DNA of 64,000 bases from the IMG/VR virus record IMGVR_UViG_3300048998_000149, positions 36,510 to 100,509 of that record; one strand, given 5' to 3'. The stretch comes from a virus. Taxonomy: Duplodnaviria; Caudoviricetes. Position numbers and translations under genes: made by a program. Position 1 is the first letter of the stretch. The number at the start of each line of letters is the position of its first letter. Below are positions 813 through 32,911 of the stretch, piece after piece. The notes beneath the pieces were generated by a model. The model had not been told where the DNA came from and did not search any database. It was given only the letters and a program-made list of their open reading frames with translations.

Positions 813-2438
813 GTGTCTAGCCCGCAGACCCACCTCCCCGTCCCCGGTTCGACCCGCAGCGCCCCGTTCGCCGCGTTCCGTCTGCGCGACGCCGAACCTG
901 AGGCGCACGTCGAAACTACCCTGATCTTGCGGCGACCGGACGACGGGCAGATGGACGCCGACCCGGGCGACATTGCCGCCGTCCAGGCGTTCGCCGCCGA
1001 GCACGGCTTGGGCACGGTGGCGACCCACCCGCCGGCCCGCGCAATCACCCTCGCGGGCACCGTCGCCCAGATGAACGACGCCTTCCACGTCGACCTGGGC
1101 GAGTACATCCACGCCGACCGCTCCTACCGGGGCCGTGAGGGCGACGTACACGTGCCCTTCGACATCGCCGGCAGGGTTGTGGCGGTGCTGGGCCTGGACG
1201 AGCGGGCAGCGGCGTTCACCCCTGCGCGCATCTCCCCGCGTGCCAGCAACTCGTTCTCGCCGCAGCAAGTAGCTGCGCACTACAACTTTCCGACCAACGC
1301 GGACGGCACCGGCCAGACGGTCGCGGTGATCGAGCTGGGCGGCGGCTATCGCACGAGCGATCTACAGGCGTATTTCAGCGGCATGGGCCTCCGGGTTCCG
1401 GCGGTGAGTGCCGTATCGGTTGGCGGGGCGACGAACTCGCCTGGCGGCTCCAATGCCGATGTTGAGGTTGCTCTCGATGTTGAGGTGATCGGTGCGGTTG
1501 CCCAAGGTGCAGCGCAGGCTGTCTACTTTGGACCGAACACGGACGCCGGTTTTTATCAGGCGATCGCCACCGCCGTGCATGATCAGGTCCGCAAGCCCTC
1601 GGTGATTTCGATCAGCTGGGGCGGCCCGGAGTCGAGTTGGACCGCGCAGGCACTGGATTCCTACGACGCCCTGTTCGCCGATGCTGGCGCACTCGGCATC
1701 ACCGTGCTCGCGGCGGCTGGCGACAACGGCAGCACCGACGGAACTACTACTAACACAGTTGACTTTCCTGCCTCATCTCCGCACGTCATAGCATGTGGAG
1801 GCACCACACTCACCTCAAGTGGCGAGTGGTCATGGGATGAGTCGTCACGGGGTCAGGGTGCGACTGGCGGCGGGGTCAGCCAGCATTTCGGGCTGCCGTC
1901 GTACCAGGCAAACGTCCGCGTACCGGCGAACCCGAAGGGTCTGCCCGGTCGTGGCGTGCCGGATGTTGCGGGCAATGCGGATCCGATCACCGGTTACCAG
2001 ATTTACGTCGGCGGCCAGTCCGGCATCGTCGGCGGTACGAGCGCCGTCGCGCCGTTGTGGGCTGGCTTGCTGGCCATCGCCAACCAGCTCAATAACAGCC
2101 GTGCAGGCTCGATCCATGCGGCGCTATACGCAAACCCGACCGCATTCACGGACATTACGCTGGGTAACAACGGCGGATACCAGGCCGGCCCGGGATGGGA
2201 CCCAGTAACAGGCCTCGGGGTACCGATCGGCTCGCGGATTGTGCAGGCCGTAGCCCCTGCGCCTGCCCCCACACCCGTGCCGGTCCCTGTCCCGACGCCT
2301 GTACCGACCCCTACGCCCACACCGGTGCCCGTGCCCACGCCAGCACCCACGGACGTTCCGGCGCTACTGACGTTCCTCACAGCCGTACAGGCGGCCTGTA
2401 CGCAGGCCATCACCGCGCTGAACGCTCTACCGAAGTAG
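813..2438 (+). CDS. S53 family serine-carboxyl peptidase (kumamolisin/sedolisin-like) with pro-domain and Pro/Thr/Val-rich tail
   Basis: EVALDVE (catalytic E/D), SISWG, AAGDNG (oxyanion D), FPASSP, GRGVPDVA, GGTSAVAP (catalytic S), GWDPVTGLG; GTG at 813 after GGGAG. Confidence 0.93.
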   Translation: MSSPQTHLPVPGSTRSAPFAAFRLRDAEPEAHVETTLILRRPDDGQMDADPGDIAAVQAFAAEHGLGTVATHPPARAITLAGTVAQMNDAFHVDLGEYIHADRSYRGREGDVHVPFDIAGRVVAVLGLDERAAAFTPARISPRASNSFSPQQVAAHYNFPTNADGTGQTVAVIELGGGYRTSDLQAYFSGMGLRVPAVSAVSVGGATNSPGGSNADVEVALDVEVIGAVAQGAAQAVYFGPNTDAGFYQAIATAVHDQVRKPSVISISWGGPESSWTAQALDSYDALFADAGALGITVLAAAGDNGSTDGTTTNTVDFPASSPHVIACGGTTLTSSGEWSWDESSRGQGATGGGVSQHFGLPSYQANVRVPANPKGLPGRGVPDVAGNADPITGYQIYVGGQSGIVGGTSAVAPLWAGLLAIANQLNNSRAGSIHAALYANPTAFTDITLGNNGGYQAGPGWDPVTGLGVPIGSRIVQAVAPAPAPTPVPVPVPTPVPTPTPTPVPVPTPAPTDVPALLTFLTAVQAACTQAITALNALPK

Positions 2439-2474
2439 CCCCAACACCGGGGATGGCTGAGGGGACGGTTCGCA

Positions 2475-2723
2475 ATGAGCGATAGGGACACCTCGCAGCC
2501 TTTCGCGCCGATCGTCGAGCAGTTGGGTATGCGTGCCGAGCTCGGCGACAGCGACCAAGTCACCGCGATGATCATAATCGTCAAGACAGTCGAATTCGGA
2601 ACCGGCGAAGTCGGCCTCGGCTACTACCGGTCGCCTGGTCTCGACTGGATCGACGCGCGGGGCATGATCGCCACCGCCCAGGACATCCTGACGACCGCCG
2701 ACCGCGCCGATGACGACGACTGA
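2475..2723 (+). CDS. Hypothetical phage protein
   Basis: ORF with RBS, compact alpha/beta composition. Confidence 0.6.
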   Translation: MSDRDTSQPFAPIVEQLGMRAELGDSDQVTAMIIIVKTVEFGTGEVGLGYYRSPGLDWIDARGMIATAQDILTTADRADDDD

Positions 2724-2729
2724 TGCGGC

Positions 2730-2960
2730 ATGGACCTCGATGAGGTAGTTGCCCGCGCCCGCCACGACATCGACATCCTCACCGCGTCGTTTGATCGCCT
2801 CACCAAGACCGACATCGGCACCCTGGTCCTGGCTGCGCACCTGGACGGCCAGTGCGACGCACTCGAGGACGAGGACCTGGTGGCGGCCACACCGGCTGAG
2901 CGTGCCGCACACGTTCAGGCACTCCGGGCTGTCGCCAACCGGCTGATGGACATGCCTTGA
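2730..2960 (+). CDS. Hypothetical protein
   Basis: Operon-like spacing. Confidence 0.55.
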   Translation: MDLDEVVARARHDIDILTASFDRLTKTDIGTLVLAAHLDGQCDALEDEDLVAATPAERAAHVQALRAVANRLMDMP

Positions 2961-3103
2961 CTGTCACGCCGGGTATCGACCAGCTGGTCATGGCGCTCGG
3001 CCTGACCTGCTTGGGTCTGGCGGCCCTCGAGAAGAGCTGGCGGATCGCCCTGTTTGGGCTGCTGCTCATCGCAGCAGTGTTCGTCTTTCCCGACTGGCTC
3101 TAA
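2957..3103 (+). CDS. Small membrane protein (48 aa, not in ORF track)
   Basis: TTG start overlapping previous stop; two hydrophobic stretches. Confidence 0.5.
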   Translation: MTVTPGIDQLVMALGLTCLGLAALEKSWRIALFGLLLIAAVFVFPDWL

Positions 3104-3200
3104 CTATCTCCCACAGTCCGGCCCCCACCCCAAGGACCGACGTCCCCTGCTGCTCCCCACCACCACGCGGGGGGCGTCGGTCCGGCCAACGGAGACCAAC

Positions 3201-3419
3201 ATGCGCCGCTTCGTACTTCGCCGCACCCACGACGCGACCGGCGTATCGGGCACGGGGGACGTCGCTGAGGGCTGTCAGTTCACGGACGGCACTGTCACGA
3301 TCCGCTGGACGACAGGCGAGCACCGCTCCACGGTCGTCTGGGCGAGCATCGCCGCCGCCTTCCACGTTCATGGGCACAACGGCGCAACGGTCATAAAATG
3401 GTGCGACAATGAGGAGTAG
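3201..3419 (+). CDS. Conserved small phage protein (GVSGTG...HGH family)
   Basis: DATGVSGTGDVAEG..F.DG and HGHNG motifs; GGAG RBS before ATG 3201. Confidence 0.75.
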   Translation: MRRFVLRRTHDATGVSGTGDVAEGCQFTDGTVTIRWTTGEHRSTVVWASIAAAFHVHGHNGATVIKWCDNEE

Positions 3420-3489
3420 AAGCGGCCCCCAGGTGCGCTAACACCTGAGGGCCTTACCGACCCACCTGTCTGAGAGGTGAATCGGCGTG
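3417..3489 (+). promoter_or_regulatory. Structured leader upstream of HNH gene (copy A)
   Basis: TAGAAGCGGCCC-stem-GCGCTAAC loop-GGGCC, then a second stem covering the RBS; similar to 20863-20925. Confidence 0.5.
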
Positions 3490-4005
3490 GCCGATCGTAT
3501 CTGCTCCGTGCCGGAATGTCCCCGTAAGCACTACGCCCTCGGCTACTGCTACCTGCACTGGGGCCGCTGCCGTGCCCACGGCGAGCCCGGCTCCGCCCAG
3601 GGGAGGCAGTACAGGGTCGCCGGGTGCACGGTCGCGGACTGCGCGGCGCCGCACAAGGCCGGCGGGTACTGCAATAAGCACTACCTCCGGTTCCGGTTGC
3701 ACGGCGACGCCCTCACGCTGCCAGAACCGACCGTTTACTTTGGCGCTGAGCATCCGGCCTGGAAGGGCGACGGCGTCTGCTATGGCCGGGCCCACACTCG
3801 CGTCGTTGATCTAAATGGGTCCGCCTCTCACCACAGCTGCATCCAGTGCAGTACCCAGGCCGAGGACTGGGCGTATCTGTACGGTGCGCCCGACGAGCGA
3901 CGGGATGAGCGTGGACGGCCATACAGCACGAACCCCAGTTCCTACGCTCCGATGTGTCGCTCCTGCCACAAGACGTTCGACAACGCCCACCGTCGATCCG
4001 AATAA
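3487..4005 (+). CDS. HNH-type endonuclease with two N-terminal Cys/His zinc modules
   Basis: CxxxxC..H...GxCxxH twice; WKGD..Y..AH; CxxC; MCRSCH at C-terminus. Confidence 0.75.
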   Translation: MADRICSVPECPRKHYALGYCYLHWGRCRAHGEPGSAQGRQYRVAGCTVADCAAPHKAGGYCNKHYLRFRLHGDALTLPEPTVYFGAEHPAWKGDGVCYGRAHTRVVDLNGSASHHSCIQCSTQAEDWAYLYGAPDERRDERGRPYSTNPSSYAPMCRSCHKTFDNAHRRSE

Positions 4006-4116
4006 GCCGACGCGCCTCGACGTGCGGCGTGCGCACAAGCCCTGTCACGCAAACTGCCGCGACCAGTGCTCCGACAGCTGCGACGACGACTGCTGCGACA
4101 ACGGGCCGAGCGCGGC

Positions 4117-4536
4117 ATGACGGACGAGGAACGCGCCAGCGTCGAGGGGCGCAAGAGCACCGAGCGGCTGTTCCTGGCTCGCGGCCCGTCCGAGGCCACC
4201 GTGACGGCTACCTATGAACGCGACGCGAACCGCATCCGATTGGACATCACGGCCGACGCCGATACTGCCTACGTCAACGCGTCTGTCACCAGAGGCAACG
4301 GCCTATGCCGGGACGCGCTCTGGCCCGCCGCAGGGCTTCTCGCCGACTGGCCCCCGAAGGGGGTAGCCCCAGTCGGCGGTTCGGCGGTGATCTACGACTA
4401 CTTGGCGCCGCTGAACATGCCCAGCGAGTATCTGGTGACCTTCTACCAGGGGCCTCGGCGGATCCTGAAGTTTGCCCGTACCGCCGCGGTCACCCCGCGC
4501 GATGACCGGCACTGGTTGAAGCGCCCAGCGACGTGA
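4117..4536 (+). CDS. Stand-alone paralog of an internal domain of tail protein 31265-32911
   Basis: YDYLAPLNMPSEY and DDRHWLKRPA match YDYVAPLNVTSQY and DTRHWLKNPA in the tail protein. Confidence 0.65.
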   Translation: MTDEERASVEGRKSTERLFLARGPSEATVTATYERDANRIRLDITADADTAYVNASVTRGNGLCRDALWPAAGLLADWPPKGVAPVGGSAVIYDYLAPLNMPSEYLVTFYQGPRRILKFARTAAVTPRDDRHWLKRPAT

Positions 4537-4633
4537 AGCTTCACCGCCGCTGCAAGCCAGGTACCTGCGAAGGCTGTGATCTTCGCCGAGACGCACTCAA
4601 AACGCCCACGCCGAAACCACGCCGAGGTACCCG

Positions 4634-4786
4634 ATGAAGCTCCGCGAGGCACTTCTCCTGGCCCTGCTCACCCGCAACCCGCTGGGTTTGGCCGTGCTGG
4701 ACCGCGAAGTCGCCAAGACGGTCGACCAGCGGATCGCGGCCAACAACACAGCTCTAGCCGACGCCCTCGCACGCCAGAAGGGCTGA
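4634..4786 (+). CDS. 50-aa protein ending in a tape-measure C-terminus-like peptide (not in ORF track)
   Basis: MKLREALLLALLTRNP...NNTALADALARQKG; GAGG RBS; paralogous to next gene. Confidence 0.7.
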   Translation: MKLREALLLALLTRNPLGLAVLDREVAKTVDQRIAANNTALADALARQKG

Positions 4787-4791
4787 GGCGG

Positions 4792-5013
4792 ATGAAGCTC
4801 CGCGTAGCCCTCATCAAGGCACTGTTCAGCCGCAACCCTGTGGCCAAGTTTGAGCGCTGGCAGACCGAACAGTTCCGCCAGCAGGTCAACCGCGCCGCAG
4901 GTGTCGACGTGCACATCCACCTGGACGGCCAGGAACTGTCGACGGCGTTCAAGGCGTACACCGACAAGAGCCTCGAGGCCTTCGCGGCATCCATCGCACG
5001 CCAAAGGCGGTGA
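4792..5013 (+). CDS. 73-aa protein ending in a tape-measure C-terminus-like peptide
   Basis: MKLRVALIKALFSRNP...VHIHLDGQEL...SLEAFAASIARQRR; GAGG RBS. Confidence 0.7.
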   Translation: MKLRVALIKALFSRNPVAKFERWQTEQFRQQVNRAAGVDVHIHLDGQELSTAFKAYTDKSLEAFAASIARQRR

Positions 5014-5267
5014 CCGCCATGTACCGGCTCCCCGCCAATGTGCTGTCCGACGCCGACCAGTCGAAAGCCCACACCGACCAGGTCATCGCAGGCATGGTCG
5101 CCAGCCTCCGCAGCGACCTCGCCGAAGGCATCGACCTGACCACCTTGTGGTGGACGCTGTCCCGAGGGTTCAACCGCGATCCGGAAACCACCAAAGCGCA
5201 CCTGGCGGTAGGTCTGGCGGCTGCGATTTTGCAGCTGGCCACCCGGGATGCGGCACCCGATGCCTAG
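5010..5267 (+). CDS. Hypothetical protein
   Basis: GTGA overlap with previous gene. Confidence 0.55.
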   Translation: MTAMYRLPANVLSDADQSKAHTDQVIAGMVASLRSDLAEGIDLTTLWWTLSRGFNRDPETTKAHLAVGLAAAILQLATRDAAPDA

Positions 5268-6036
5268 CCCAGGTAGAACGCGGATCAAAACCCCCAACGC
5301 GGCCAAGATCCTGATCATGGACATCGAGCGCCTACCTGGGCTGGCGCGTGTGTGGGAGCCGAGGACGAAGTACATCGGCCCCCGCAACTTTGTGGAGTGG
5401 CCGAGCCTGCTCTGCTGGGCGGCGCGTTGGTACGGCGAGAAAGAACAGATGTTCGCGGCCGAGTGGATAAGCCACGACGACATGATTTCCGAAATGTGGG
5501 CACTTTACGATCAAGCTGACATCCTCGTCAGCTTCAACGGGATCGGGTTCGATTCTAGGCATCTCAAGAGTGAGTGGCTGATGGCAGGCCTACAGCCGCC
5601 GAGGCCATGGAAAGACGTTGACCTGTACAAAGTGGTCAAGCAGTTCGGTTTCGAAAGCAAGAGTTTGGATTCGGTCTCGAGACGCCTTGGTCGTCCGGGC
5701 AAGGCTCTTTCTTATAATATGGATCTTGCGTACGCAGCCCAGGGCGGCAGTGTGCGCGCCCAGAACACGCTGCGCCGCTACAACGCCGGCGACGTCGAGC
5801 TGACCGAGTGGCTGTATGACCGGCTGCGCGGCTGGATCCCCACCCATCCGATCATCGGCGCCACCGATGGTGAAGATAAACGCTGCAACCAGTGCGGCTC
5901 GGACAAGCTGCGCAACCAGCCGTCCAAGTACCGCGCGGTGGTCATCGACTACAACCTCCTCAGATGTGCCCACTGCGGCGGCCTGAGCCGTGCGGGTTGG
6001 CACAGCAGGGTCTCATCCACCCGTGGTGTCGCATGA
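5260..6036 (+). CDS. DnaQ-like / RNase H-like 3'-5' exonuclease with C-terminal zinc ribbon
   Basis: Exo I MDIE, Exo II FNGIGFD, Exo III YNAGD; CNQC...CAHC. Confidence 0.85.
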   Translation: MPSPGRTRIKTPNAAKILIMDIERLPGLARVWEPRTKYIGPRNFVEWPSLLCWAARWYGEKEQMFAAEWISHDDMISEMWALYDQADILVSFNGIGFDSRHLKSEWLMAGLQPPRPWKDVDLYKVVKQFGFESKSLDSVSRRLGRPGKALSYNMDLAYAAQGGSVRAQNTLRRYNAGDVELTEWLYDRLRGWIPTHPIIGATDGEDKRCNQCGSDKLRNQPSKYRAVVIDYNLLRCAHCGGLSRAGWHSRVSSTRGVA

Positions 6037-6263
6037 TCGACGGCGGCCGACCGGTGGCGGAAGCCGCCGTGAGCACGCTGAAAATCTACTGCTCTCGCTG
6101 CGGCGGACCCGCCGTCTGCCCGCTGGCCACCGACCACGTGCGCGTCGATGGTCTCGGCACGCTGATGTCGTGGACGTTGCATCCGCCGGTCGATGATGAG
6201 TATTGCTGTTGGCCCGACAGGCCGGTGTGGCAACTGAAAAAGCCCACACGCGGAGTCGCCTGA
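6033..6263 (+). CDS. Small Cys-containing hypothetical protein
   Basis: ATGA overlap; CSRC motif. Confidence 0.45.
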   Translation: MIDGGRPVAEAAVSTLKIYCSRCGGPAVCPLATDHVRVDGLGTLMSWTLHPPVDDEYCCWPDRPVWQLKKPTRGVA

Positions 6264-6397
6264 TGAACGACGACGACGCAGCCCCAGGTCAGCACTGCAC
6301 CGAATGCGGCGGCCCTGGCCACGTGTGGTGCCTCGACATTCCCGACCCGTTCGTCGAACCTCTCGCAGCTGTACTAGCCAACCCACACTGCGACTGA
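6263..6397 (+). CDS. Small hypothetical protein
   Basis: TGATG overlap; CTEC motif. Confidence 0.4.
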   Translation: MNDDDAAPGQHCTECGGPGHVWCLDIPDPFVEPLAAVLANPHCD

Positions 6398-6418
6398 CCG
6401 CCACACGCACCCGAACGT

Positions 6419-6496
6419 GGTGAGCGATGCCGAAGCGGACGAGGCCCAAGGTTGTGAACCTTGGTTTAGCGGGTTCGAGTCCCGTCGCTCACCCCA
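6419..6496 (+). tRNA. tRNA-His (GTG)
   Basis: Acceptor GTGAGCG/CGCTCAC with G-1 and C73, encoded CCA, anticodon arm CAAGG-TTGTGAA-CCTTG, GGTTCGAGTCC T-arm. Confidence 0.92.
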
Positions 6497-6524
6497 ACCA
6501 CGCCGACCACCGAAGGGAGCCACC

Positions 6525-7112
6525 ATGGCCACCAACACCCCTGACACCCCCAAGGACGACGCAGCGGCCAACGGTGCTCCCGCAGGGCAGCCCGAAGCCG
6601 CCACGCCCGCAGCGGCCCCCACAGCGTCGAAGCGGCGTGGCCGGCCGAACATGCGCATGAACTCGAAAACCAGCCCCGCTGCGATCGAACGCCTCGAACG
6701 CGACCTAGCCAACGTCAACCTGCGCCGCTCCGGTGTCGCCTGGGATGCCATCGCCACCCAGCTCGGCTACGCCGACGCAGGCCACGCCCATCGCCGCTTC
6801 ATGGCCGTCATGGCCGCATACCCGCGTGAGGACGTCGACCAGGCCCGCCAGGTCGAACTAGACCGCCTCGACCAAATCCAGCACGCCATCTGGGCGCAGT
6901 GTTTGGACACCGAAAGCAAAAATCAGCATTGGGCGATCGACCGCATGCTGAAACTCTCTGACCAGCGCGCCAGGTTGCTCGGCTTGAACGCCCCTGTCAG
7001 GCAGGAGATCTCCGTGCTGTCCGAGTCGGTTGTCGATAAGGCGATCCGCGAGTTGCAGGCACAGATGCAGGCTCAGGCCAGCGAGGCTGGCGTAGAACTA
7101 CCCGCCGAGTAG
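6525..7112 (+). CDS. HTH protein, probable terminase small subunit
   Basis: LRRSG..WDAIATQLGY HTH, ELDRLD, RARLLGLNAP motif typical of actinophage TerS-like proteins; GGGAG RBS. Confidence 0.6.
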   Translation: MATNTPDTPKDDAAANGAPAGQPEAATPAAAPTASKRRGRPNMRMNSKTSPAAIERLERDLANVNLRRSGVAWDAIATQLGYADAGHAHRRFMAVMAAYPREDVDQARQVELDRLDQIQHAIWAQCLDTESKNQHWAIDRMLKLSDQRARLLGLNAPVRQEISVLSESVVDKAIRELQAQMQAQASEAGVELPAE

Positions 7113-7364
7113 GTGTAGCCCGCGCACTCGGCAGCCCAGGCAGTAGCCGTCCGCTAGGGCCACGCGCAGGCTCTCGTGGCCTTCCACGGTGGTCCGGCCG
7201 CATCCCACGCATGGCACTTCCGGCCCTGATTCGAGCGGGTCGACAGGTTCGGCCGTCGCCTCGGGGAGCACTGTGCGGCCCAGGCGGCAGCGTTCGCACA
7301 CGTCGCGCCCTTCGCCGAGCAGGAACAGTTTCTGTCCGCAGCGCCTGCACTCAGTCGGGATCAC
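7098..7364 (-). CDS. Zinc-ribbon hypothetical protein
   Basis: Four CxxC pairs; GTG start overlapping upstream gene. Confidence 0.5.
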   Translation of the reverse strand: MIPTECRRCGQKLFLLGEGRDVCERCRLGRTVLPEATAEPVDPLESGPEVPCVGCGRTTVEGHESLRVALADGYCLGCRVRGLHLLGG

Positions 7365-9659: not shown

Positions 9660-9860
9660 TCAGGCGAAGCGAGCGAACGGAACGTCGACCACGGGCTTGC
9701 CGTCTTCGTCCTCGATGCGCCCACAGGTGGCGCACTCGGCCCAGTCGCTATTCGGGGCGGCCAGCTTGCCGTCGCGGTAGATCGGCGAGAACCAGCTGTG
9801 CGCGTGCCCGAACTTGCAGGTGTTCTGCGACTTCGGGTTGCTCTGGCACTTCGTGGCCAT
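9660..9860 (-). CDS. Small Cys/His hypothetical protein
   Basis: AGGAG RBS; CxxC. Confidence 0.55.
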   Translation of the reverse strand: MATKCQSNPKSQNTCKFGHAHSWFSPIYRDGKLAAPNSDWAECATCGRIEDEDGKPVVDVPFARFA

Positions 9861-9945
9861 CGGGTTCTCCTGGCGTGGTGGTGGTGTGGCCGGGCGGTCG
9901 CCGAGTGGGCTCAGGCTGGCTGAGCCCCTCGGGTGTTACGTCCGG

Positions 9946-10170
9946 TCAGAACTGGGTGCGGTAGAACTTGCCGCCGCGGCTGACAGCGTCAGCGGCGTGC
10001 GTCCACGTCACGTCGATGCAGCGCCCATTCCGATCGACAACTCGCGCGTAGCCCCAAACCGGGCTGCTGATCTGGGCCGGCTGGCCGTCCAGGGTGACGC
10101 CCTTCGCACGGCACAGCTCGGAGCGCTTGTCGGCGGTGAGTACGTCGCTGGTGGTGGTCGTGGTGGTCAT
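9946..10170 (-). CDS. Hypothetical protein
   Basis: AGGAGG RBS. Confidence 0.65.
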   Translation of the reverse strand: MTTTTTTSDVLTADKRSELCRAKGVTLDGQPAQISSPVWGYARVVDRNGRCIDVTWTHAADAVSRGGKFYRTQF

Positions 10171-10376
10171 GTGGTGCCTCCTGTGAGATGGGGTGGGAGC
10201 TCAACCTGTCTGACGTAATCATACACCGGATCTGCCGGATGTGCCATACCTAAGGTGGGGAAACGGGCCGCGCCGCCCTAAAGGGGTGGGGGGCGACGCG
10301 GCCCCGCTGGGGAGCTGGCCTAGTGGGAGAAAACAAAGCGGCGACCGCTTAACAAAGCGACGACCGTTCGGCGCAG

Positions 10377-11459
10377 CTAGCGCCAGGCGTTCAGGATCGG
10401 CGGCACCGACAGATCCAACGGCGGGTACGAGTCGCGGGTAGTGGACCGGCCACTACGGCGCAACGCCAACCGGCCCGACTGGATCAGGAACGGCTCCACA
10501 TCGGCCGACAGCTCCCTCGGGTTCATCCCCAATGCGGTAGCTAGCGGGTTGATGCCGATCGGACCGCCCTTGAACGTCGTCGCCAACGTTTGCAGCACAC
10601 GCCGGTCACGTCCGTCTAGGCCGTACTGGTCGACGCCGGCGTACTCCATGCCCTGCAACGCGGTCTCAGCGTCCAGCACAGCGGCCGGATCGCCGGTCAG
10701 GTCATCGGAGTACACCTGCACCGCACCCAACAGTTCCAGGGCCTTACGGGGCGTCGAGCGGGATGCGCCCGCAATGACCAGGGCAGCATCGACGTCGAGG
10801 TGGATGCCAGCCTCTTCGCAGTGCGACAGCAGCAGCATCGCCAAGTCGTCCACCGCATACGGCTCGATGTGCGCGTGGAACTTGAACCTGTTCCGCAGCG
10901 GGGCCAACACCGAACCCGGCTCGGTCGTCGCGGCGATCAGAGTGAACGGCGCCAGCTGCACAGTCTGCGGGCCATCCTCGCTGGGCATGATGGCAAACCC
11001 GTCCTGCATCGCGTTGTACAGGCCTTCCTGGACGCTGTGGTGCACGCTGTGCACTTCATCCAGGAACAGCACATCGTTGGGCCGCAGCATCGACAGGGTT
11101 ATGGCCAGCGACCGCGCATCGGGCAGCGCGTTCGGCATCACCTGGTGGAACGTCGATGCCACACCCTCAGCGACCAGCTCGCCGTGAACAGCCTGCGCAA
11201 TGAGCGTCTTCCCGAACCCGGGCGCACCATCCAGAAACACATGGCCGGCGGCCTGCCCGCGCAGCTTCGCCGAACGGATCAGCGACCCGAGCCGCATCGT
11301 CAACTCGGGCTGGCCGATCACATCGGACAGCCGCTTAGACGGAGGCTCGGGCACTACCTCAGGTTCGGGTTCGTCGGACACCACACGCAAGGCCCGCGGC
11401 TTGGGGGCCACGATGCCGTGCTTCGCGGCGAGCCGCTCGAACGGGCTGGGGCTGGTCAT
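10377..11459 (-). CDS. ruvB: RuvB-like Holliday junction branch-migration AAA+ ATPase
   Basis: DVIGQ, Walker A GAPGFGKT, Walker B FLDEVH, FTLIAATT, PLRNRF, TPR, GLD..D, GGPIG, EPFLIQ.G wHTH. Confidence 0.88.
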   Translation of the reverse strand: MTSPSPFERLAAKHGIVAPKPRALRVVSDEPEPEVVPEPPSKRLSDVIGQPELTMRLGSLIRSAKLRGQAAGHVFLDGAPGFGKTLIAQAVHGELVAEGVASTFHQVMPNALPDARSLAITLSMLRPNDVLFLDEVHSVHHSVQEGLYNAMQDGFAIMPSEDGPQTVQLAPFTLIAATTEPGSVLAPLRNRFKFHAHIEPYAVDDLAMLLLSHCEEAGIHLDVDAALVIAGASRSTPRKALELLGAVQVYSDDLTGDPAAVLDAETALQGMEYAGVDQYGLDGRDRRVLQTLATTFKGGPIGINPLATALGMNPRELSADVEPFLIQSGRLALRRSGRSTTRDSYPPLDLSVPPILNAWR

Positions 11460-12440: not shown

Positions 12441-13847
12441 ATGCCTGATCCGCAGGTGGTTGAGGCTCCTCTGGCGAAGCTGGAGCTTCTGGCGCGGTTG
12501 CAGGCGCAGCAGGCGGAGTTGCAGCGGCGGATCGCCAAGATGGCGCCACCGAGGCCCCGTGCGTGGCATGAGCAGGCTCGGACGGCGCAGTTGCCTCCGC
12601 CGGGTGATTGGGCGATCTGGTTGGTGTTGGCGGGCCGTGGGTTTGGGAAGACGAGGCTGGCGGCTGAGTGGATCGCCGAGCAGGCGGCTACGCATCCGGA
12701 TACGGAGTGGGCGATTGTGGCCCCGACGTGGAGGGATTGCCGCAAGACGTGCATTGAGGGGCCGTCGGGTTTGGTGCGGGCGTTGCTGCCTGGCGAGCTT
12801 GAGTCGATGAACGCGAGTGATTTGCAGATCCGGTTGAGCAACGGCTCCCGGATCTACGGGTACAGCGCGGATCGGCCTGACCGGCTGCGTGGCGCGAACT
12901 TGTCGGGCGCCTGGGTGGATGAGGCGGCGGCGATGGTGCACGCCGACGAGTTGTTCGGCGAGGCGTTGATGCCGGCGCTGCGGATCGGCGAAAACCCCAG
13001 GGTGTTGATCACGACGACGCCTCGGCCGGTGAAGTTGCTGCGCGACTTGTTGGCGCGCGACGACGGCACGGTGGCGGTCGTTCGGGGTTCGACGTGGGAC
13101 AACGCGAAGAACTTGTCGCGGACGGCGCTAGCGGAGTTGCGGGCCCGGTATGAGGGCACCCGACTGGGCCGCCAGGAGCTCGAGGGTGAGCTGCTGGAGG
13201 ACATTGAGGGTGCGCTGTGGTCGCGGGAGATTCTCGACGGCACCAGGGTTGATCGGGCTCCGACGTTGGCGCGGATCGTGGTGGGTGTCGACCCCGCTGT
13301 GACGTCCGGCGAGAAGTCCGACTACACGGGCATTGTGGTTGCCGGCCGGTCCCCCGATGGGCATCTGTACATCCTTGAGGACGCCACGATGAAGGGGACG
13401 CCGCACAACTGCATGTCGGCTGCTGTGTCGGCCTATCACCGTTGGCATGCCGACAGGATTGTCGGCGAGGTCAACAACGGTGGGGACTACATCGGCACCG
13501 TGTTGAAGACGATCGACGCGAACGCCGCGTACAGCACGGTTCGCGCGACCCGAGGGAAAGTTGTTCGGGCCGAACCGATTTCGGCGCTGTGGGAGCAGGG
13601 TCGCGGTCATATTGTCGGCGCGCTGCCGACGCTGGAAGACCAGATGTGCTCCTTCACGCCGGACACGAAAGAGTCGCCGGACAACATGGACGCCATGGTG
13701 TGGGCGGCCCACGAGTTGAATGTGGGCACGTCGGCGCTGGTGTACCTGTCGGCGATCTCCACGATGTGCGAGAAGTGCGAGATGCCCAACTCGAAGAAGT
13801 CGACGGCGTGTCGTGGTTGTGGCACTGCTCTGTCGTCGGCGGCTTAG
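12441..13847 (+). CDS. terL: Terminase large subunit with C-terminal zinc ribbon
   Basis: GRGFGKT Walker A, WVDEAA Walker B, TTTPRP, RQELEGE, GVDPA nuclease, SPD.MDA; CEKC...CRGC. Confidence 0.95.
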   Translation: MPDPQVVEAPLAKLELLARLQAQQAELQRRIAKMAPPRPRAWHEQARTAQLPPPGDWAIWLVLAGRGFGKTRLAAEWIAEQAATHPDTEWAIVAPTWRDCRKTCIEGPSGLVRALLPGELESMNASDLQIRLSNGSRIYGYSADRPDRLRGANLSGAWVDEAAAMVHADELFGEALMPALRIGENPRVLITTTPRPVKLLRDLLARDDGTVAVVRGSTWDNAKNLSRTALAELRARYEGTRLGRQELEGELLEDIEGALWSREILDGTRVDRAPTLARIVVGVDPAVTSGEKSDYTGIVVAGRSPDGHLYILEDATMKGTPHNCMSAAVSAYHRWHADRIVGEVNNGGDYIGTVLKTIDANAAYSTVRATRGKVVRAEPISALWEQGRGHIVGALPTLEDQMCSFTPDTKESPDNMDAMVWAAHELNVGTSALVYLSAISTMCEKCEMPNSKKSTACRGCGTALSSAA

Positions 13848-26704: not shown

Positions 26705-29700
26705 GTGGCTGAACTGCATATCTCTATCACCGGCGATTGTATCGGCGCCACCTCCGCGATTGACAACACCAAGTCGGCTATTGATTCGCTCAACGGCAAG
26801 ACCGCAGGTGTTGCTGTCGCGTTGAGCGGTTCCGACAGCGCTATCAGCGACCTGGGCAAGGTAGGAGCGGCCAGGCAGGCTGCGGGCGGCACCGTCACGC
26901 TCGGCGTGGACGGCTCGGGCATCAGCGCGGGGCGCGACGCCCTGTCCGGCCTGCGGTCGGATGTGCGGGCGGCTGGCCGGGAACTCGACACTATTAGCGG
27001 TAGCCGGGCGTTGGGCTTCTCCGACAACGGCTCGATCAGGCAGATGACCTCCGATCTGTCTGGGGCGAGCCGCGAGATGCGGGGCATCGGCGCCTCGGCG
27101 CAGGCGTTGGGGCGGGTCGATTCGGCTGCGCAGAGCGTCTCCCGGTCCACGTCGGGGATGGAAGCCAACATGTCGTCCGCTAACCGGACGGCGAGTGCCC
27201 TCAACGCCACTATCAGTGGTGGGGGCGATGCGGCGGCGTCCTCTACGGCTCAGATGCGGCAGTTGTCGATGGCGATGGCTGGTGGCGGCTCCGGCAGTGC
27301 ACTCGCCGAATCCGCCGCCGACGGCAGCACCGCGGTGCGCACCCTCGAGGCCGATATGTCCTCGGCCAGCCGGTCGGCCGGCAAGTTATCCGACCAAGCC
27401 ATCGCGGTCGGCCGAGCCCTCAACACGGGGGGGCTGCCTTCGGGGTTCAACACCTTCGGCGGTAGCGACGCCAGCGTCGGTATTCCCGGCACGGGACACG
27501 GTCCGCCGCGTGGGCCAGGGGGCGGCGGGGGTAGTGGTGGCGGCGGCGCCTTCGGCGGCGGCAGTGAGGGTGGAGGCGAGGGAAGCCTCAGGGGGCTCGG
27601 CGGCCCCGGACTGATTGCGCTGGCGGGCGGGGCTGTCGGCGAGATGGTCGGCGCTGGCGCTGGCCTGGTCGCGGTGTCGGAGACCATCAAGAACGTCCCC
27701 GGGCTGGCGTATGCCGCTAACCAGGCGATGAACCAGTTCGGCAAAGGGGTCGCTGAGACCGGCAAGAGCGCCATGCTTGAGGGGGTGCCTGCGCTTCACC
27801 AGTTGGGGGATGCGCTGGGCGGTCTTGGGCGTGAGGTGGGCACGATCGGCGCCCAGCAGATGGGCACTGTGCTGAACGGTGCGACTCAGCTGGCTGGTGG
27901 CGCTACGACGGCGCTGAAGTCGCTGGAGCCTGCGATCGGCCCGGCTGTGACTGGTGCGATCAATCTGGGTAACGCGCTTTTGGCGGGTGTTGCTAACCCT
28001 GCGGTGACGAATGCGATCAAGGGCTTGGGCAACTCGTTGTCCGGCGCCGGAGTCGCCGACGTTATCAGCGACGCCACTACAGGGCTGCTTACTGCCGGTT
28101 CCATTGCGAGCAAGGTTGCTGTTGATGTTGTCAGTAGCGTCGCGGGAGCACTGGGGGCCGGTAGCCCCGACGCGCCTACGGTGACCACGGACCTCACTGG
28201 CGGTCTCGGCGGCTTCATGGCCGGTAAGGCTCTGGGCGGCCCCAAGATGGGGATTGCGGGCGCCCTTCTCGGTACCGCAGGCATGGCCGCCGCGCAATTC
28301 GAGCAAGCGCATGGGATGAACGCCGCGGTTACCCCCACCATCGTGGGCGAGGGAATCGGCGCTGGGCTTGGCGGCTTGATGTTTGGCCCTGCCGGCGCCT
28401 TTGTTGGTGGCGCTGTCGGCGGCACCGTCGGGTCCACCTTGTCGGAGTCTGCACCCTCGAACACCGGGTGGGGCAGCGCCATGAACACGGGCGGCTCCCT
28501 CCTCAACTTGGCTGGTGCTGCGATCTCTGACATCGCCAACGCTCCGGGCGCGATGATGAACTACGGGTCCGCAAGCCCAAAGAGTTTCGCGGATCGGGCG
28601 AGTTCCGCCTTCGGCGACCTGCACGCAAAGGGCGACGACCTCAACAATCAGATAGCCAACGCCACTGGTATCTACACCGGTGGCGCCGTGCCAGGAGGTG
28701 CGGCGGGCGGTACTGGCGGCTCCACTGCCGCCCAGTACGACGCGTCGGGACATTCCGCCCAGGCCCCAATGGGCTGGAACATGGACCAGCAGGGCAACCT
28801 GTCGCCAGCTACGACGCGGATGCAGGACTACAACGGGGCGCCTCCGCCCCCTCCGTCGTCGCCTGCGGCGACTGGCGGGTTCGGTCAGGGGGCACCTACG
28901 GCGGCGACGGCGCAGGCCGTGCAGCAGCTGAGTGCCGCATTGCCAGCCGCGAATCAGAACTTGCAGCAGACTGGGGCGGCTTCGGCTACCGCCGCATCAG
29001 GGTTGTCGAGGGTTACGCCGAGTTTCACCAGTGCCACGTCGGCGGCGCAAGGGTTGCAGCAGAGTTCTTCTGCCCTGTCGGCGCCGATGCAACAGGTGCA
29101 GCAGCATGCGGCTGCCGCGACTAATGCCGCGCAGGGTTTGCAGCAGCAGGCTCCGCAGACGGCGGCGGCTGTGCAGCAGATGGCCCCGGCGGTGAATCAG
29201 GCGATGACTCAGGCCGGTTCCGCCGTGCAGTCTGGCGGCCAGGCTTTGGGCACGCAGATCCCCGCGTCGATGGGTTCGGGGATTTCGGCGGGCCAGTCGC
29301 AGGCTTGTGATGCGTCGGCCCAGATGGCAGCGCAGGCCGCGAAGTGTGCCGCCGCGGCGTTGCAGGCGGCTTCCCCGTCGAAGGTGTTCGTCGGGTTGGG
29401 TGTGGGCATCGGCGACGGTTTGGCGATCGGTGTGCGGGACAGCACTCCTGGCGCGGTGAGCGCGGTGAAGGACGCGATGAACAGTGTCGTGTCGTCCGGC
29501 GCGACAGGTTTGCAGGCGGCGTCCCCGTCGAAGACGTTCACCCAACTCGGTCAAGACGCCATGAACAGCGTCGCTGGTGGGGTCAGGGGCGGCGACGGTG
29601 CCTCGCTGCCGCAGTACGGCGGCGTCAACTCTTACGGTGGCCAGCCTCCGCGCACCGGCGGCATTGCACATCGGGTCGACCTGGCCGCCGGTCATGACGA

Positions 29701-31183
29701 TCTGTCGGAGCGCCAGCAGCGGGCCAACACGCTGTCCGACATGAACGCCGCGAACATGCCGCAGCAGCGGATGGCGGATGCCCAGCGGCAGGCTGAGAAG
29801 CAGAAGGCCGATCAGGACAAGGCGGACAGCCCGGAGCAGAAGCGCGCCGATGCGTTCCGCAAGAATCTGGAGAAGCTGGGCTATTCGAAGGACACGATCG
29901 ACCGGCTCAGCGGGAACCAGCAGCGGCACGATGCGAATAAGGACAGGCTGGACGCCGCAAGGAGAATCCGCCAGCAGGACGCGCAGGACCGAGCGTTCGG
30001 CAACCAGAATATTGACCCTAAAACGGGTCTGCCTATGACCCACGACCAGCGTGCACTGCAGCTCCAGAACCGGGCTGGGCAAACCCAGAAGGATGCACTG
30101 GCCGCCGCTCGCCAGGGCATTTCGCTGTCCGAGTACCGGCAGAACCAGCAGAACGCCGCACTGGGCGCCGGGCCGATGAACTCTAGGCCGGGTACTCCAC
30201 CCAACCCCTTCGGGCAGACGCTGGCAGGCACTGGCGGTGGCGCCACTCCCCCCAAGCCCCAGGGTTCGGCCGCCGTGGAGGGTGCCAAAAAGTGGAACGA
30301 GCACGTGGCCGACGGGAAGCGCGCTGCGGCTGACGCCAAGGGACAAGGCAACCAGATCGGTCAGGGCTTGATGCAGGGCCAGGCCGATGGGATCAAGCAG
30401 GGCCAGGGCCAGGTGAACGACGCGGCCAACAAGGCCGCCGACGGGACCACCAACACGACCAAGAAGAAGCACGGCATCCATTCTCCGTCGAGGGAGTACC
30501 ACGACATCGGCAACAACCTGATGCGCGGTATGGCTGAGGGCGTTCATCACGGTCGCCGACATGTGGACCGTGAGTTCGACGACATGGATCGCGATATGCA
30601 CGATCGGGACGACAAGAGAGGCGACAGGTGGTGGCGGGGCCTCGGCATCCCCAGCGTCGTCCAGAGTAGCGGCGGCGGTGGCGGAGGAGGCGGGGGCGGC
30701 GGGGCTTCTGGCGGCGGTGGCGGAGGAGGCGGGGGCGGCGGCGGGGGCGCCCTTGGGATTGGCGCGTCCCAAGCCGAGGCTGTAGCCGCTTTGACTGGGG
30801 CCTTGGGCTCCGGCGTGCAGGCCGCTTCCGATGGGGTTCTGCCGATCGCCTCCAGCCACGGGTTGATGGTCGGCTATGCGTGGGCGCGCAGCGTCGAAAC
30901 CGGCGCCGATTCGGTGCTGAAGAAGGCTGACTTCATGGCGTCGGCGCTGCCAGCGGTTGGAAGCGCACTGGCGAAGACGGCGCTGGGTACGGCAGGGCTG
31001 TTGGGGCCGGCTGGGTCTGGCGCGTCGATAGACAAGACACCCGCGGTGACCCTGACCGCGTCGGCGCCAGTGGTGCACAACCATTTCTATGTCGACGGCA
31101 AAGAGATCCAGGGCATCACCCAGCAGGTGGTGGACAGCAACTTAGACGCGCTCGCCGACTCGATCGGCCGGCAACGCGGCTAA
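26705..31183 (+). CDS. Tape measure protein (Gly/Ala-rich, 1492 aa)
   Basis: Longest ORF, follows G/GT; repeated ASPSK.F / IHSPSR..G....GL..G motifs; C-terminal ..VDGKEI. Confidence 0.85.
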   Translation: MAELHISITGDCIGATSAIDNTKSAIDSLNGKTAGVAVALSGSDSAISDLGKVGAARQAAGGTVTLGVDGSGISAGRDALSGLRSDVRAAGRELDTISGSRALGFSDNGSIRQMTSDLSGASREMRGIGASAQALGRVDSAAQSVSRSTSGMEANMSSANRTASALNATISGGGDAAASSTAQMRQLSMAMAGGGSGSALAESAADGSTAVRTLEADMSSASRSAGKLSDQAIAVGRALNTGGLPSGFNTFGGSDASVGIPGTGHGPPRGPGGGGGSGGGGAFGGGSEGGGEGSLRGLGGPGLIALAGGAVGEMVGAGAGLVAVSETIKNVPGLAYAANQAMNQFGKGVAETGKSAMLEGVPALHQLGDALGGLGREVGTIGAQQMGTVLNGATQLAGGATTALKSLEPAIGPAVTGAINLGNALLAGVANPAVTNAIKGLGNSLSGAGVADVISDATTGLLTAGSIASKVAVDVVSSVAGALGAGSPDAPTVTTDLTGGLGGFMAGKALGGPKMGIAGALLGTAGMAAAQFEQAHGMNAAVTPTIVGEGIGAGLGGLMFGPAGAFVGGAVGGTVGSTLSESAPSNTGWGSAMNTGGSLLNLAGAAISDIANAPGAMMNYGSASPKSFADRASSAFGDLHAKGDDLNNQIANATGIYTGGAVPGGAAGGTGGSTAAQYDASGHSAQAPMGWNMDQQGNLSPATTRMQDYNGAPPPPPSSPAATGGFGQGAPTAATAQAVQQLSAALPAANQNLQQTGAASATAASGLSRVTPSFTSATSAAQGLQQSSSALSAPMQQVQQHAAAATNAAQGLQQQAPQTAAAVQQMAPAVNQAMTQAGSAVQSGGQALGTQIPASMGSGISAGQSQACDASAQMAAQAAKCAAAALQAASPSKVFVGLGVGIGDGLAIGVRDSTPGAVSAVKDAMNSVVSSGATGLQAASPSKTFTQLGQDAMNSVAGGVRGGDGASLPQYGGVNSYGGQPPRTGGIAHRVDLAAGHDDLSERQQRANTLSDMNAANMPQQRMADAQRQAEKQKADQDKADSPEQKRADAFRKNLEKLGYSKDTIDRLSGNQQRHDANKDRLDAARRIRQQDAQDRAFGNQNIDPKTGLPMTHDQRALQLQNRAGQTQKDALAAARQGISLSEYRQNQQNAALGAGPMNSRPGTPPNPFGQTLAGTGGGATPPKPQGSAAVEGAKKWNEHVADGKRAAADAKGQGNQIGQGLMQGQADGIKQGQGQVNDAANKAADGTTNTTKKKHGIHSPSREYHDIGNNLMRGMAEGVHHGRRHVDREFDDMDRDMHDRDDKRGDRWWRGLGIPSVVQSSGGGGGGGGGGGASGGGGGGGGGGGGGALGIGASQAEAVAALTGALGSGVQAASDGVLPIASSHGLMVGYAWARSVETGADSVLKKADFMASALPAVGSALAKTALGTAGLLGPAGSGASIDKTPAVTLTASAPVVHNHFYVDGKEIQGITQQVVDSNLDALADSIGRQRG

Positions 31184-31264: not shown

Positions 31265-32911
31265 GTGGCGCTCACCGTCGTGACTTTGCGGCCGAACTCC
31301 ACCTCCCAGCTTGGGCTGGGAACGGTCACCGGCGCTGCGACCGCCGATGCGGCCCTCGCCGATAACGTCGACACCTCCTATGTGCAGATTTCCAGCCGTG
31401 TCCGGCTGGATTCGCAAGTCACTCGGGTTGGGTTCCCAACCCCAGCGATTCCCGCCGGCGCGAAGGTGTATTCGGTTGGTTTGAGGCGCCGCATCCAGAC
31501 GGTGGTCACCGGCGCGGATATCCCGGTATGCAACCACTGGCTTCGATCGATCACCGGCGCCATCCTGGTGGCGGGGCAGGCTCAGGCCATCCAGAAGTCG
31601 TTTTTCAGTTCAACTAACCCCGTCTCGCCGACCACGGCGACGTGGGTGGAGGAGAACCTCGGCACCTTCACGTCCGGCCCGGGTGGGCAGGTGTGGGATC
31701 CGACGACAAACCTTGTTGGGCTTACCTACGACCTGGGTCGAGGTGACGACTCGGTGACTTCGGTGCTGCAGGTCAGCGCCGTCTATTTGGACGTCACCTA
31801 CCAGTCGCTTTCGTCGGTCACCGTCACCGGCCCCACCGGCACCGTCACCTCGACGCGGCCCACAGTCAAATGGACGTATTCCAGCCCGAACAGCCAGCCG
31901 CAGCAGTCCTACCAGGTGGCCATCTACACGTCGGCGCAGGTCGCTTCGCTCGGGTTCACACCGTTTGTGACCACACCGCTCCAGACGTCGGGGGTGGTAT
32001 TGGGCGAGGATTTGCAGTGGACTCTGACCAGCGACATCACCGACGGCGCCTATTCGGCGTATGTGCAGTCCACGTCGCGGTGGTCTGGTTCGGGGAGCTT
32101 CGCCACCGCCGTCTCCTCTGCCACCTGGACCCGGGCGGCTGCTCCGGCGAACCCGCCCCCAGCTGCGGTGTTGTCGGCGGCGGTGTTCGACTCGGCCAAC
32201 AATCGGGTCGCCTTAACGTTTGCTCCCGGCGGGTCGAGCCCCGCAACCACGGCGTTCACCGTCCAGTCTTCCCAGAACGGTGGGGTGACTTTTACGAGCA
32301 TCCCCAGCCTGACCTATGTGCCCGCGACCGGCCTGACCCCCATAACCAAATACGACTATGTGGCGCCGTTGAACGTCACGTCGCAATACCGGGTGTTGGC
32401 CTACAGCGGAACGGTGTTGGTGGCCGCCACCGCCCCGTCGAATGTGCTGTCGGCGACCCCTGCGGATACTCGGCATTGGTTGAAGAACCCGGCTAATCCG
32501 CTGCAGAACACGCCGTTGCCGGTGGCTGCTCCGAAGACGAGTGACGTCGGCATCAAGATCACCAAACGCCGGATGATGGGCACGTTCCAACTCTTGGGTG
32601 GCCCAGGGTCAGAAGTGTTGCCGTTCGTTGTGAACGGTCCAACCTACGGCGATGAATACGCAATCGAATTGATCTTCCTTTGGGACGATCCGGTCGATCT
32701 CTGGCCAGCGGTCGACCAGTTGGACCGCACCGGCGGCACCTTGCTGTTCCAAAAACCGAACGGCGACCAACTGTGGGTGGCCTTGGGTCCCGGCTCAAGC
32801 GGGCAGGAAACAGAAGAGACCTACAACGCCCCCGCTGGCGATCCGACCAAGATCCAGTGGCGTCGCCGAAAGCTGATCCTCACGGAGACGGTTCCGCCAA
32901 GCTTCTACTAG
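31265..32911 (+). CDS. Minor tail protein (Dit position) with FN3/Ig-like domains
   Basis: Immediately after TMP; Thr/Ser-rich beta domains; YDY.APLN and WLK.P motifs. Confidence 0.7.
   Translation: MALTVVTLRPNSTSQLGLGTVTGAATADAALADNVDTSYVQISSRVRLDSQVTRVGFPTPAIPAGAKVYSVGLRRRIQTVVTGADIPVCNHWLRSITGAILVAGQAQAIQKSFFSSTNPVSPTTATWVEENLGTFTSGPGGQVWDPTTNLVGLTYDLGRGDDSVTSVLQVSAVYLDVTYQSLSSVTVTGPTGTVTSTRPTVKWTYSSPNSQPQQSYQVAIYTSAQVASLGFTPFVTTPLQTSGVVLGEDLQWTLTSDITDGAYSAYVQSTSRWSGSGSFATAVSSATWTRAAAPANPPPAAVLSAAVFDSANNRVALTFAPGGSSPATTAFTVQSSQNGGVTFTSIPSLTYVPATGLTPITKYDYVAPLNVTSQYRVLAYSGTVLVAATAPSNVLSATPADTRHWLKNPANPLQNTPLPVAAPKTSDVGIKITKRRMMGTFQLLGGPGSEVLPFVVNGPTYGDEYAIELIFLWDDPVDLWPAVDQLDRTGGTLLFQKPNGDQLWVALGPGSSGQETEETYNAPAGDPTKIQWRRRKLILTETVPPSFY

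Follow-up and report, generated by a model that had tools for sequence, protein, structure and literature searches.

We have found that an uncultured phage encodes, outside its tail module, a free-standing protein of 139 aa, P0003 (4117-4536, + strand), that belongs to a rare family of stand-alone FN3-fold proteins sharing ancestry with a module of the tail protein encoded directly after the tape measure protein (TMP). That the gene is real, and that such a family exists and has this kinship, we hold with high confidence. The explanation that accounts best for the whole adds a function to this description, with the old free FN3 family supplying a soluble competitor or decoy binding module; to this combined account we give a little less than an even chance. 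An FN3 module of phages, known from virion proteins, is here an independent family of small genes.

The window, by which we mean the whole stretch of 64,000 nucleotides analysed, comprises bases 36510-100509 of an IMG/VR record of 100.5 kb (65.6% G+C; CheckV completeness 86%). Recognisable genes in it include those for the packaging protein TerL (12441), among the head and packaging genes, the portal (14801), the TMP (26705-31183, + strand; 1492 aa) and several tail proteins. Searches with blastn and tblastn against 50,697 GenBank phage records gave no match for the region, for the free copy or for the tail protein, and the phage lineage is uncultured. Its sole host hint comes from the tail-protein orthologues, two clusters of which (67-73% identity) lie on 22-24-kb contigs, L045 and L046, binned with Mycobacterium sp. 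MAGs.

The gene at 4117-4536 and its setting

The gene for P0003 lies 8 kb upstream of TerL, inside a run of co-oriented genes. The order in this run is an HNH endonuclease gene directly upstream (3487-4005, + strand; PHROG HNH families, E 2e-16 to 6e-24), the FN3 ORF, two small genes (4634-4786 and 4792-5013), an 85-codon gene, and a DNA polymerase exonuclease-like gene in the same orientation (5248-6036). Further downstream, the gene at 6525-7112 (+ strand) matches phrog_645, annotated 'Rnase E' (E 1.5e-25); its homologues are conserved in the related genomes G003, G005 and G006 (28-62% identity), and it was used as a synteny anchor. A consensus scan gave a single sigma-70-like promoter match in the interval 2400-7200, at 3371-3399 (+ strand), and no terminator-like site between that match and 7200.

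Third-position G+C (GC3) of 4117-4536 is 0.84, compared with 0.79 for the tail protein gene and 0.78 for the TMP gene. The frame is open from 4066 to 4536; in a third-position G+C frame plot, the stretch 4066-4116 lacks a coding pattern in that frame. Because the GC3 bias begins at 4117, and because two homologues of P0003 likewise start with MTD, the ATG at 4117 is the likely start, rather than the GTG at 4066. A chance ORF was considered and ruled out by the GC3, by the homologues and by the profile statistics given below. P0003 consists of an N-terminal helix (residues 3-21), a β-sandwich (28-125) containing a disordered loop that is private to this protein (70-85), and a C-terminal HWLKRPAT tail. 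Inspection of its sequence, and of those of its free-standing homologues, revealed neither a signal peptide nor a hydrophobic segment. We conclude that 4117-4536 is a real gene, the product of which is predicted to be a small cytoplasmic protein in which a short N-terminal helix precedes one FN3-type β-sandwich.

The gap between the HNH and FN3 genes is occupied by a possible ORF of 32 codons (4022-4120, + strand), an uncertain call, with seven Cys codons. It has the best third-position GC of the frames at 4000-4116 (0.88, 0.82) and no family match. Its stop codon and the start codon of the FN3 gene overlap (ATGA), and this ORF may be a genuine mini-gene with a part in translational coupling.

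P0003 is related to a module of the post-TMP tail protein

The gene at the Dit position encodes a tail protein of 548 aa, P0001 (31265-32911, + strand), and starts 82 nt past the TMP stop. BLASTP aligns the ORF with this protein at 33% identity over 114 columns (E 2e-11), pairing residues 48-155 of the ORF, in its 156-aa reading, with residues 306-410 of the tail protein (32180-32494, + strand). In a six-frame search (tblastn) of the whole 100.5-kb genome, this module was the single non-self match (E 1.7e-9). Profiles of 12 free copies and 16 tail modules, compared by hhalign, align with a probability of 99.1% over 104 columns (E 1.6e-18). By sequence comparison, then, the P0003 module is a relative of the second FN3 module of the post-TMP tail protein.

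The initial annotation had described the ORF as a free-standing copy, with an open frame, of one domain of the post-TMP gene, and had proposed an alignment of the two as a check. The peptides that it quoted are present in both genes where it had placed them, and both the pairwise and the profile alignments are significant, so that, with a GC3 typical of coding sequence in this genome, this part of the description stands. So does its claim that the copy ends at the border of the C-terminal domain of the tail protein, since the match stops at HWLK(R/N)PA.

The tail protein itself has no Pfam or PHROG family and is matched by no Dit or Sipho_tail model. Profile search collected about 56 clusters of orthologues, 470-780 aa long. 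Seven of 15 orthologues give a weak hit to the FN3-like Pfam family Tissue_fac (PF01108) at residues 294-346, which is below the cut-off; the tail module scores 17.7 bits, against a cut-off of 27 bits. Residues 400-548 may behave as a separate domain: they have Atlas structural matches to clusters of tail proteins, including one to Dit_like at TM 0.53, which we take as a lead only. P0003 has neither the Dit position nor the Dit domain: its gene is separated from the tail gene by 27 kb and sits outside the tail module, surrounded by small genes, and the protein ends before that domain.

'Evolved' Dit proteins of Gram-positive siphophages are distal tail proteins to which modules have been added. 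The parent-like tail protein resembles them in being encoded directly after the TMP and in having decoration modules together with a small C-terminal domain that is weakly Dit_like. It differs in that the putative ring-like domain is C-terminal rather than N-terminal, and the free copy has no Dit-like domain.

Some orthologues of the tail protein carry an insertion of ~220 aa within the FN3 module, between the NNRV..L strand and the next strand. Such a domain-in-domain arrangement is seen in L003:2971-5280 (P0004) and in about ten further clusters of 768-778 aa; the insertion has no Pfam match.

The copied module is predicted to be of FN3 type

Sequence databases gave little guide to the fold. 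At E <= 0.1, no Pfam family was found for the free copy, and no Pfam FN3 model matched, the copy failing the curated cut-offs of fn3 (PF00041) and of related FN3-like models; PHROGs held no family for it either. PDB sequences, searched with the tail protein and the A2 and A3 profiles, gave no significant match.

We therefore turned to structure prediction. A single-sequence AlphaFold (AF2) model was unusable (pLDDT 42), and a model based on an alignment of free copies and tail modules (A3; 25 sequences) was used instead (pLDDT 78, pTM 0.70). In this model the N-terminal helix is followed by seven strands between residues 28 and 125, and the disordered loop corresponds to an insertion found in P0003 alone. 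Exhaustive comparison with 48,161 PDB representatives using VIA-align gave a top 50 consisting almost entirely of FN3 domains (Z 8.3-9.7), including those of fibronectin, CD148, tenascin, cytokine receptors and lambda gpJ, which superpose with an rmsd of 1.7-3.4 Å over 81-102 residues. Human fibronectin scores Z 9.7; the FN3 domain of lambda gpJ (PDB 8iyk chain J), which has the fold predicted for P0003, scores Z 9.1, with an rmsd of 1.7 Å over 83 residues. Foldseek searches of PDB and BFVD gave weak but consistent matches, among them FN3 domains, tip attachment protein J and minor tail proteins. Since the structural matches are nearly all FN3 domains, we assign the copied module to the FN3 type, and the model of P0003 has the seven-strand sandwich expected of it. 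FN3 is a generic scaffold, and the fold therefore says nothing about the binding partner.

FN3 and Ig-like modules of phage structural proteins have been described before (Fraser et al., 2006, as summarised in PMC9022992). Those FN3 modules are modular and prone to shuffling, and P0003 is alike in this, with sequence homology to a tail-tip FN3 module. They are, however, parts of virion proteins or are added to them by frameshifting, whereas P0003, of 139 aa, is encoded by a separate gene and has an N-terminal helix of its own.

A rare family of free-standing FN3 genes

An exhaustive HMMER (phmmer) search of 1.84 billion representative sequences returned six short homologues of P0003 (116-179 aa, 37-46% identity, E 1e-9 to 7e-4) and, at that threshold, no long ones. 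A profile search added a second subtype of 110-113 aa, as well as several tail-protein fragments. The free family amounts to about 12 clusters among 5.8 billion proteins, with lengths of 106-179 aa. A search of IMG/VR with the free copy alone found nothing.

We define the family as stand-alone ORFs of ~105-180 aa that contain ATYD..NRV.L and YDY.APLN...Y.v.F, usually followed by VTP...HW. By this definition its members are P0003, P0005-P0010, P0067, P0069-P0071 and the copy in G003; P0003 shows the defining features in alignments A1, A3 and A5. R39, L42, D94 and Y105 are invariant in the family alignments, and the core motifs are retained at 21-38% identity. The N-terminal helix has been gained in the free family and is specific to it. 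All free copies are complete ORFs with intact frames, and we saw none of the decay in homologues that the initial annotation had regarded as speaking against its proposal.

The free copies are found where small genes form arrays, in the vicinity of genes for HNH, RtcB, SSB or DNA polymerase A. Their carriers are contigs of uncultured phages with 62-66% G+C, which, over the stretches compared, have hardly any other genes in common with this genome (tblastn of called genes); the carriers are high-GC, probably actinobacterial, phages. Two of the contigs, L007 and L048, have type A and type B copies in tandem, with overlapping stop and start.

We then examined ten IMG/VR records that have the orthologous tail protein, using the domain profile. 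The tail module was evident in all ten, the free copy in G003 only (106 aa); with this genome counted, two of 11 related genomes have a free copy. The complete 122-kb genome G002, which has terminal repeats (DTR), contains none. In G003 the free copy lies between homologues of an S53 protease gene and of the 6525 gene, with RuvB beyond. This is the same interval as in the present genome (G000), and the rest of its content differs between the two, so the free FN3 gene is accessory cargo in a plastic region. Taken together, these observations indicate with little doubt, as part of the descriptive account, a rare, fast-evolving and patchily distributed family in variable small-gene regions.

Just 3' of the G003 copy, at L039:2270-3000 (G003:56680-57400), a repeating unit (ARLG/WAWLG-like) appears in several frames, which suggests a tandem DNA repeat region of lower complexity.

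The split between free copies and tail modules is old

The initial annotation took the ORF to be a truncated fragment of the resident tail gene. This is not supported. In an unrooted maximum-likelihood tree of nine free copies and 16 tail modules, all 16 tail modules are found together on the same side of a branch 1.05 long (support 87/89), and P0003 groups with P0005, P0006, P0007 and P0010 (91/68) rather than with the resident tail module. Identity of the free copy is 28-33% to the resident module and, in the alignment, 24-31% to any tail module; related phages have tail modules that match the resident one at 50-71% identity. Because of this difference in identity and the separate position in the tree, the free copy is not a recent truncated duplicate. 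We are confident, again as part of the descriptive account, that the split between free and tail forms is old and reflects module shuffling and not recent truncation of the resident tail gene. As the tree is unrooted, movement from tail to free gene and from free gene to tail are both compatible with it. By BLAST, the tail module is a closer match to P0008 and P0009 than P0003 is, and free copies may therefore have arisen more than once.

A rough estimate of selection was obtained from one contig pair, L007 and L048, by the Nei-Gojobori method: dN/dS is 0.47 for the type A free copy and 0.72 for type B, compared with 0.13-0.53 for four neighbouring genes. Thus the free copies are under weak-to-moderate purifying selection. 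L009, L010 and L011 have identical DNA for P0009 and so give no selection signal.

A dN/dS of up to 0.72, together with the long branches, is compatible, too, with a gene of little use that is only weakly constrained. The FN3 module might be an evolutionary by-product, in transit through a plastic region and temporarily open, with little or no function, having been brought there by domain shuffling or by illegitimate recombination near homing endonuclease genes. The patchy presence, the HNH gene directly upstream and the variable interval, in which the other cargo differs between G000 and G003, fit such a history. A module in passage would hardly be expected, however, as at least 12 distinct clusters with intact frames, on contigs that have almost no other genes in common with this genome; nor would it be expected to keep its core motifs at such low identity, to gain a family-specific N-terminal helix or to show a strong GC3, and the dN/dS of the type A copy is inside the range of its neighbours. 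We regard this explanation as unlikely.

P0003 might instead be a virion component, docking on the tail tip or capsid as a small decoration or accessory protein, and happen to be encoded outside the tail module. Phage Ig-like and FN3 domains are described almost only in structural proteins, including a free-standing one, Hoc (PMC9022992); the P0003 gene precedes the packaging and head genes (TerL, portal) and has the same orientation as they do; and the pair of FN3 genes on L007 is located 4.3 kb before a TerL-like gene piece. T4 Hoc is like P0003 in being the product of a separate gene and in being made only of sandwich domains of the Ig-like type (PMC9022992). It is, however, a capsid component with several I-set domains, whereas P0003 has a single FN3 domain and its gene sits with other small genes, away from the tail module. 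Other contigs place the free copy beside SSB, RtcB or DNA polymerase genes, most relatives with the same tail protein lack it, and its fast evolution and tandem duplication are unlike the behaviour of the conserved tail module. A place in the virion thus seems quite unlikely to us.

Two adjacent genes resemble the TMP C-terminus

The two small genes downstream of P0003 are also related to a tail gene, though with weaker matches. The first (mimic 1; 4634-4786, + strand; 50 aa; GC3 0.82), which has GAGG 7-10 nt before its ATG, matches the last 30 TMP residues (BLASTP E 1e-3). The second (mimic 2; 4792-5013, + strand; 73 aa), which is GC-rich at the third position in frame and has GAGG before its ATG, matches the TMP C-terminus (BLASTP E 1e-5; genome-wide tblastn E 1.3e-4). 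The mimics share the start MKLR..AL..AL..RNP, and both resemble the C-terminal segment of the TMP that is encoded at 31082-31183 (+ strand). In 13 related phages the TMPs have a conserved C-terminal motif, with which the mimics align and end in register. Neither Pfam nor PHROGs has a family for them.

The initial annotation was therefore right that pieces resembling two adjacent tail-tip genes sit together. Within the 100.5 kb, the only paralogues of these adjacent genes lie in two adjacent tail genes; because such a paralogy of neighbours to neighbours is unlikely to be due to chance, we consider the local pattern to be real. The order, FN3 followed by TMP-like, is the reverse of that in the tail module. 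A relic of a second contiguous TMP-Dit junction was rejected as an origin, given the reversed order and the fact that the pieces are separate genes with their own starts.

A further claim had been that the FN3 gene and the mimics form a three-gene cassette of truncated tail-tip parts, for which co-occurrence in related genomes was proposed as a check. We searched 12-19 kb around the corresponding place in G002, G003, G005 and G006 by local tblastn with each genome's own TMP C-terminus, a procedure that recovers both mimics in this genome as a positive control, and found no TMP mimic. None adjoins the free copies in their other contexts. A search of five relatives with mimic 2 likewise found nothing, although it was insensitive, since it also missed their TMP C-termini. 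The adjacency of FN3 gene and mimics was found in this genome only, and a conserved three-gene cassette is therefore not supported.

A cassette confined to this phage could still act as one, the FN3 protein and the two mimics together poisoning or delaying tail assembly of relatives, or of the phage itself, by engaging tail-tip assembly intermediates, namely the hub protein and the site in which the TMP C-terminus is held. The three small genes are adjacent and co-oriented with no terminator-like site between them, their two independent paralogies lead to two adjacent tail genes, with no other target in the genome, and the mimics end at an aligned position common to the TMPs of 13 phages. Against such a unit stand the adjacency, which is not conserved, the order, and the history of the FN3 gene, which is an old lineage that did not come from the resident gene. 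Moreover, according to reviews, the Ig-like domains of phages belong to structural proteins and can usually be dispensed with in assembly, and Ig-like and FN3 modules are described as peripheral (PMC9022992). As FN3 is usually peripheral in phages and not an assembly interface, a dominant-negative effect of the FN3 module on assembly, of the kind that the initial annotation had raised as a possibility, is, by this analogy, less likely. Overall, we judge joint poisoning of tail assembly to be improbable.

A possible role as a soluble binding module

Our preferred reading of function is that P0003 is a soluble binding module for the type of partner bound by the tail-tip FN3 module, and that it acts as an intracellular competitor or decoy. 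We put this forward tentatively, as a possibility on which we would not insist. FN3 modules are binding scaffolds, and P0003 shares its core and its C-terminal HW motif with the tail module. The simplest expectation would be that it binds the partner of the tail module, or else something that itself binds that module; it would then compete, or serve as a decoy, within the infected cell in a conflict between phages or between phage and host. A conflict gene would fit the fast evolution, tandem duplication and patchy presence of the family. In this genome, P0003 may act together with the two adjacent mimics of the TMP C-terminus. In a more specific version, the three would form a soluble look-alike set, consisting of the hub FN3 module and two TMP C-terminal peptides, that blocks the assembly sites of competitors or a tail-tip sensor of the host or a prophage; this we consider very unlikely.

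Ltp of phage TP-J34 and gp15 of HK97 are superinfection-exclusion proteins that act on the incoming TMP. Both are membrane proteins or lipoproteins, and they are unrelated in sequence to tail proteins. The TMP-like genes might be functionally analogous to them, in which case the whole group could have a role directed at the tail tip. Ltp and gp15 are membrane-bound, however, whereas the products encoded here are predicted to be soluble mimics of tail parts.

Should P0003-type proteins bind tail-tip partners or host sensors, they would represent a new reuse of structural pieces for conflict or regulation, and the look-alike set, if true, would amount to a kind of decoy strategy so far undescribed for tail proteins. 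If there is no such binding, the case documents the movement of tail modules around phage genomes.

Genes adjoining the free-standing copies

Directly beside most of the free FN3 genes are small Cys-rich (zinc-ribbon-like) genes, or else the FN3 protein has a Cys-rich C-terminal tail (P0008, P0009). The neighbours overlap the FN3 gene by stop and start; small Cys-rich genes are common in these arrays anyway. The sites are 6263-6397 in the window (+ strand), L005:453-578, L006:1365-1511, L007:4830-5078, L011:1056-1286, L008:1-222 and L039:1818-2297. Downstream of the L005 and L006 copies, a mini-protein with the pattern CxxC...H..C resembles, by eye and unscored, the product of 6263-6397.

On L007, a gene at 9832-10419, within the small-gene array that holds the FN3 pair, encodes 195 aa that are 44% identical to residues 40-234 of the TerL of the window (12558-13142), with a match to TerL in PHROGs (E 3e-8). 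Either the terminase gene is split here, or this is a further case of a piece of a structural-module gene standing by itself.
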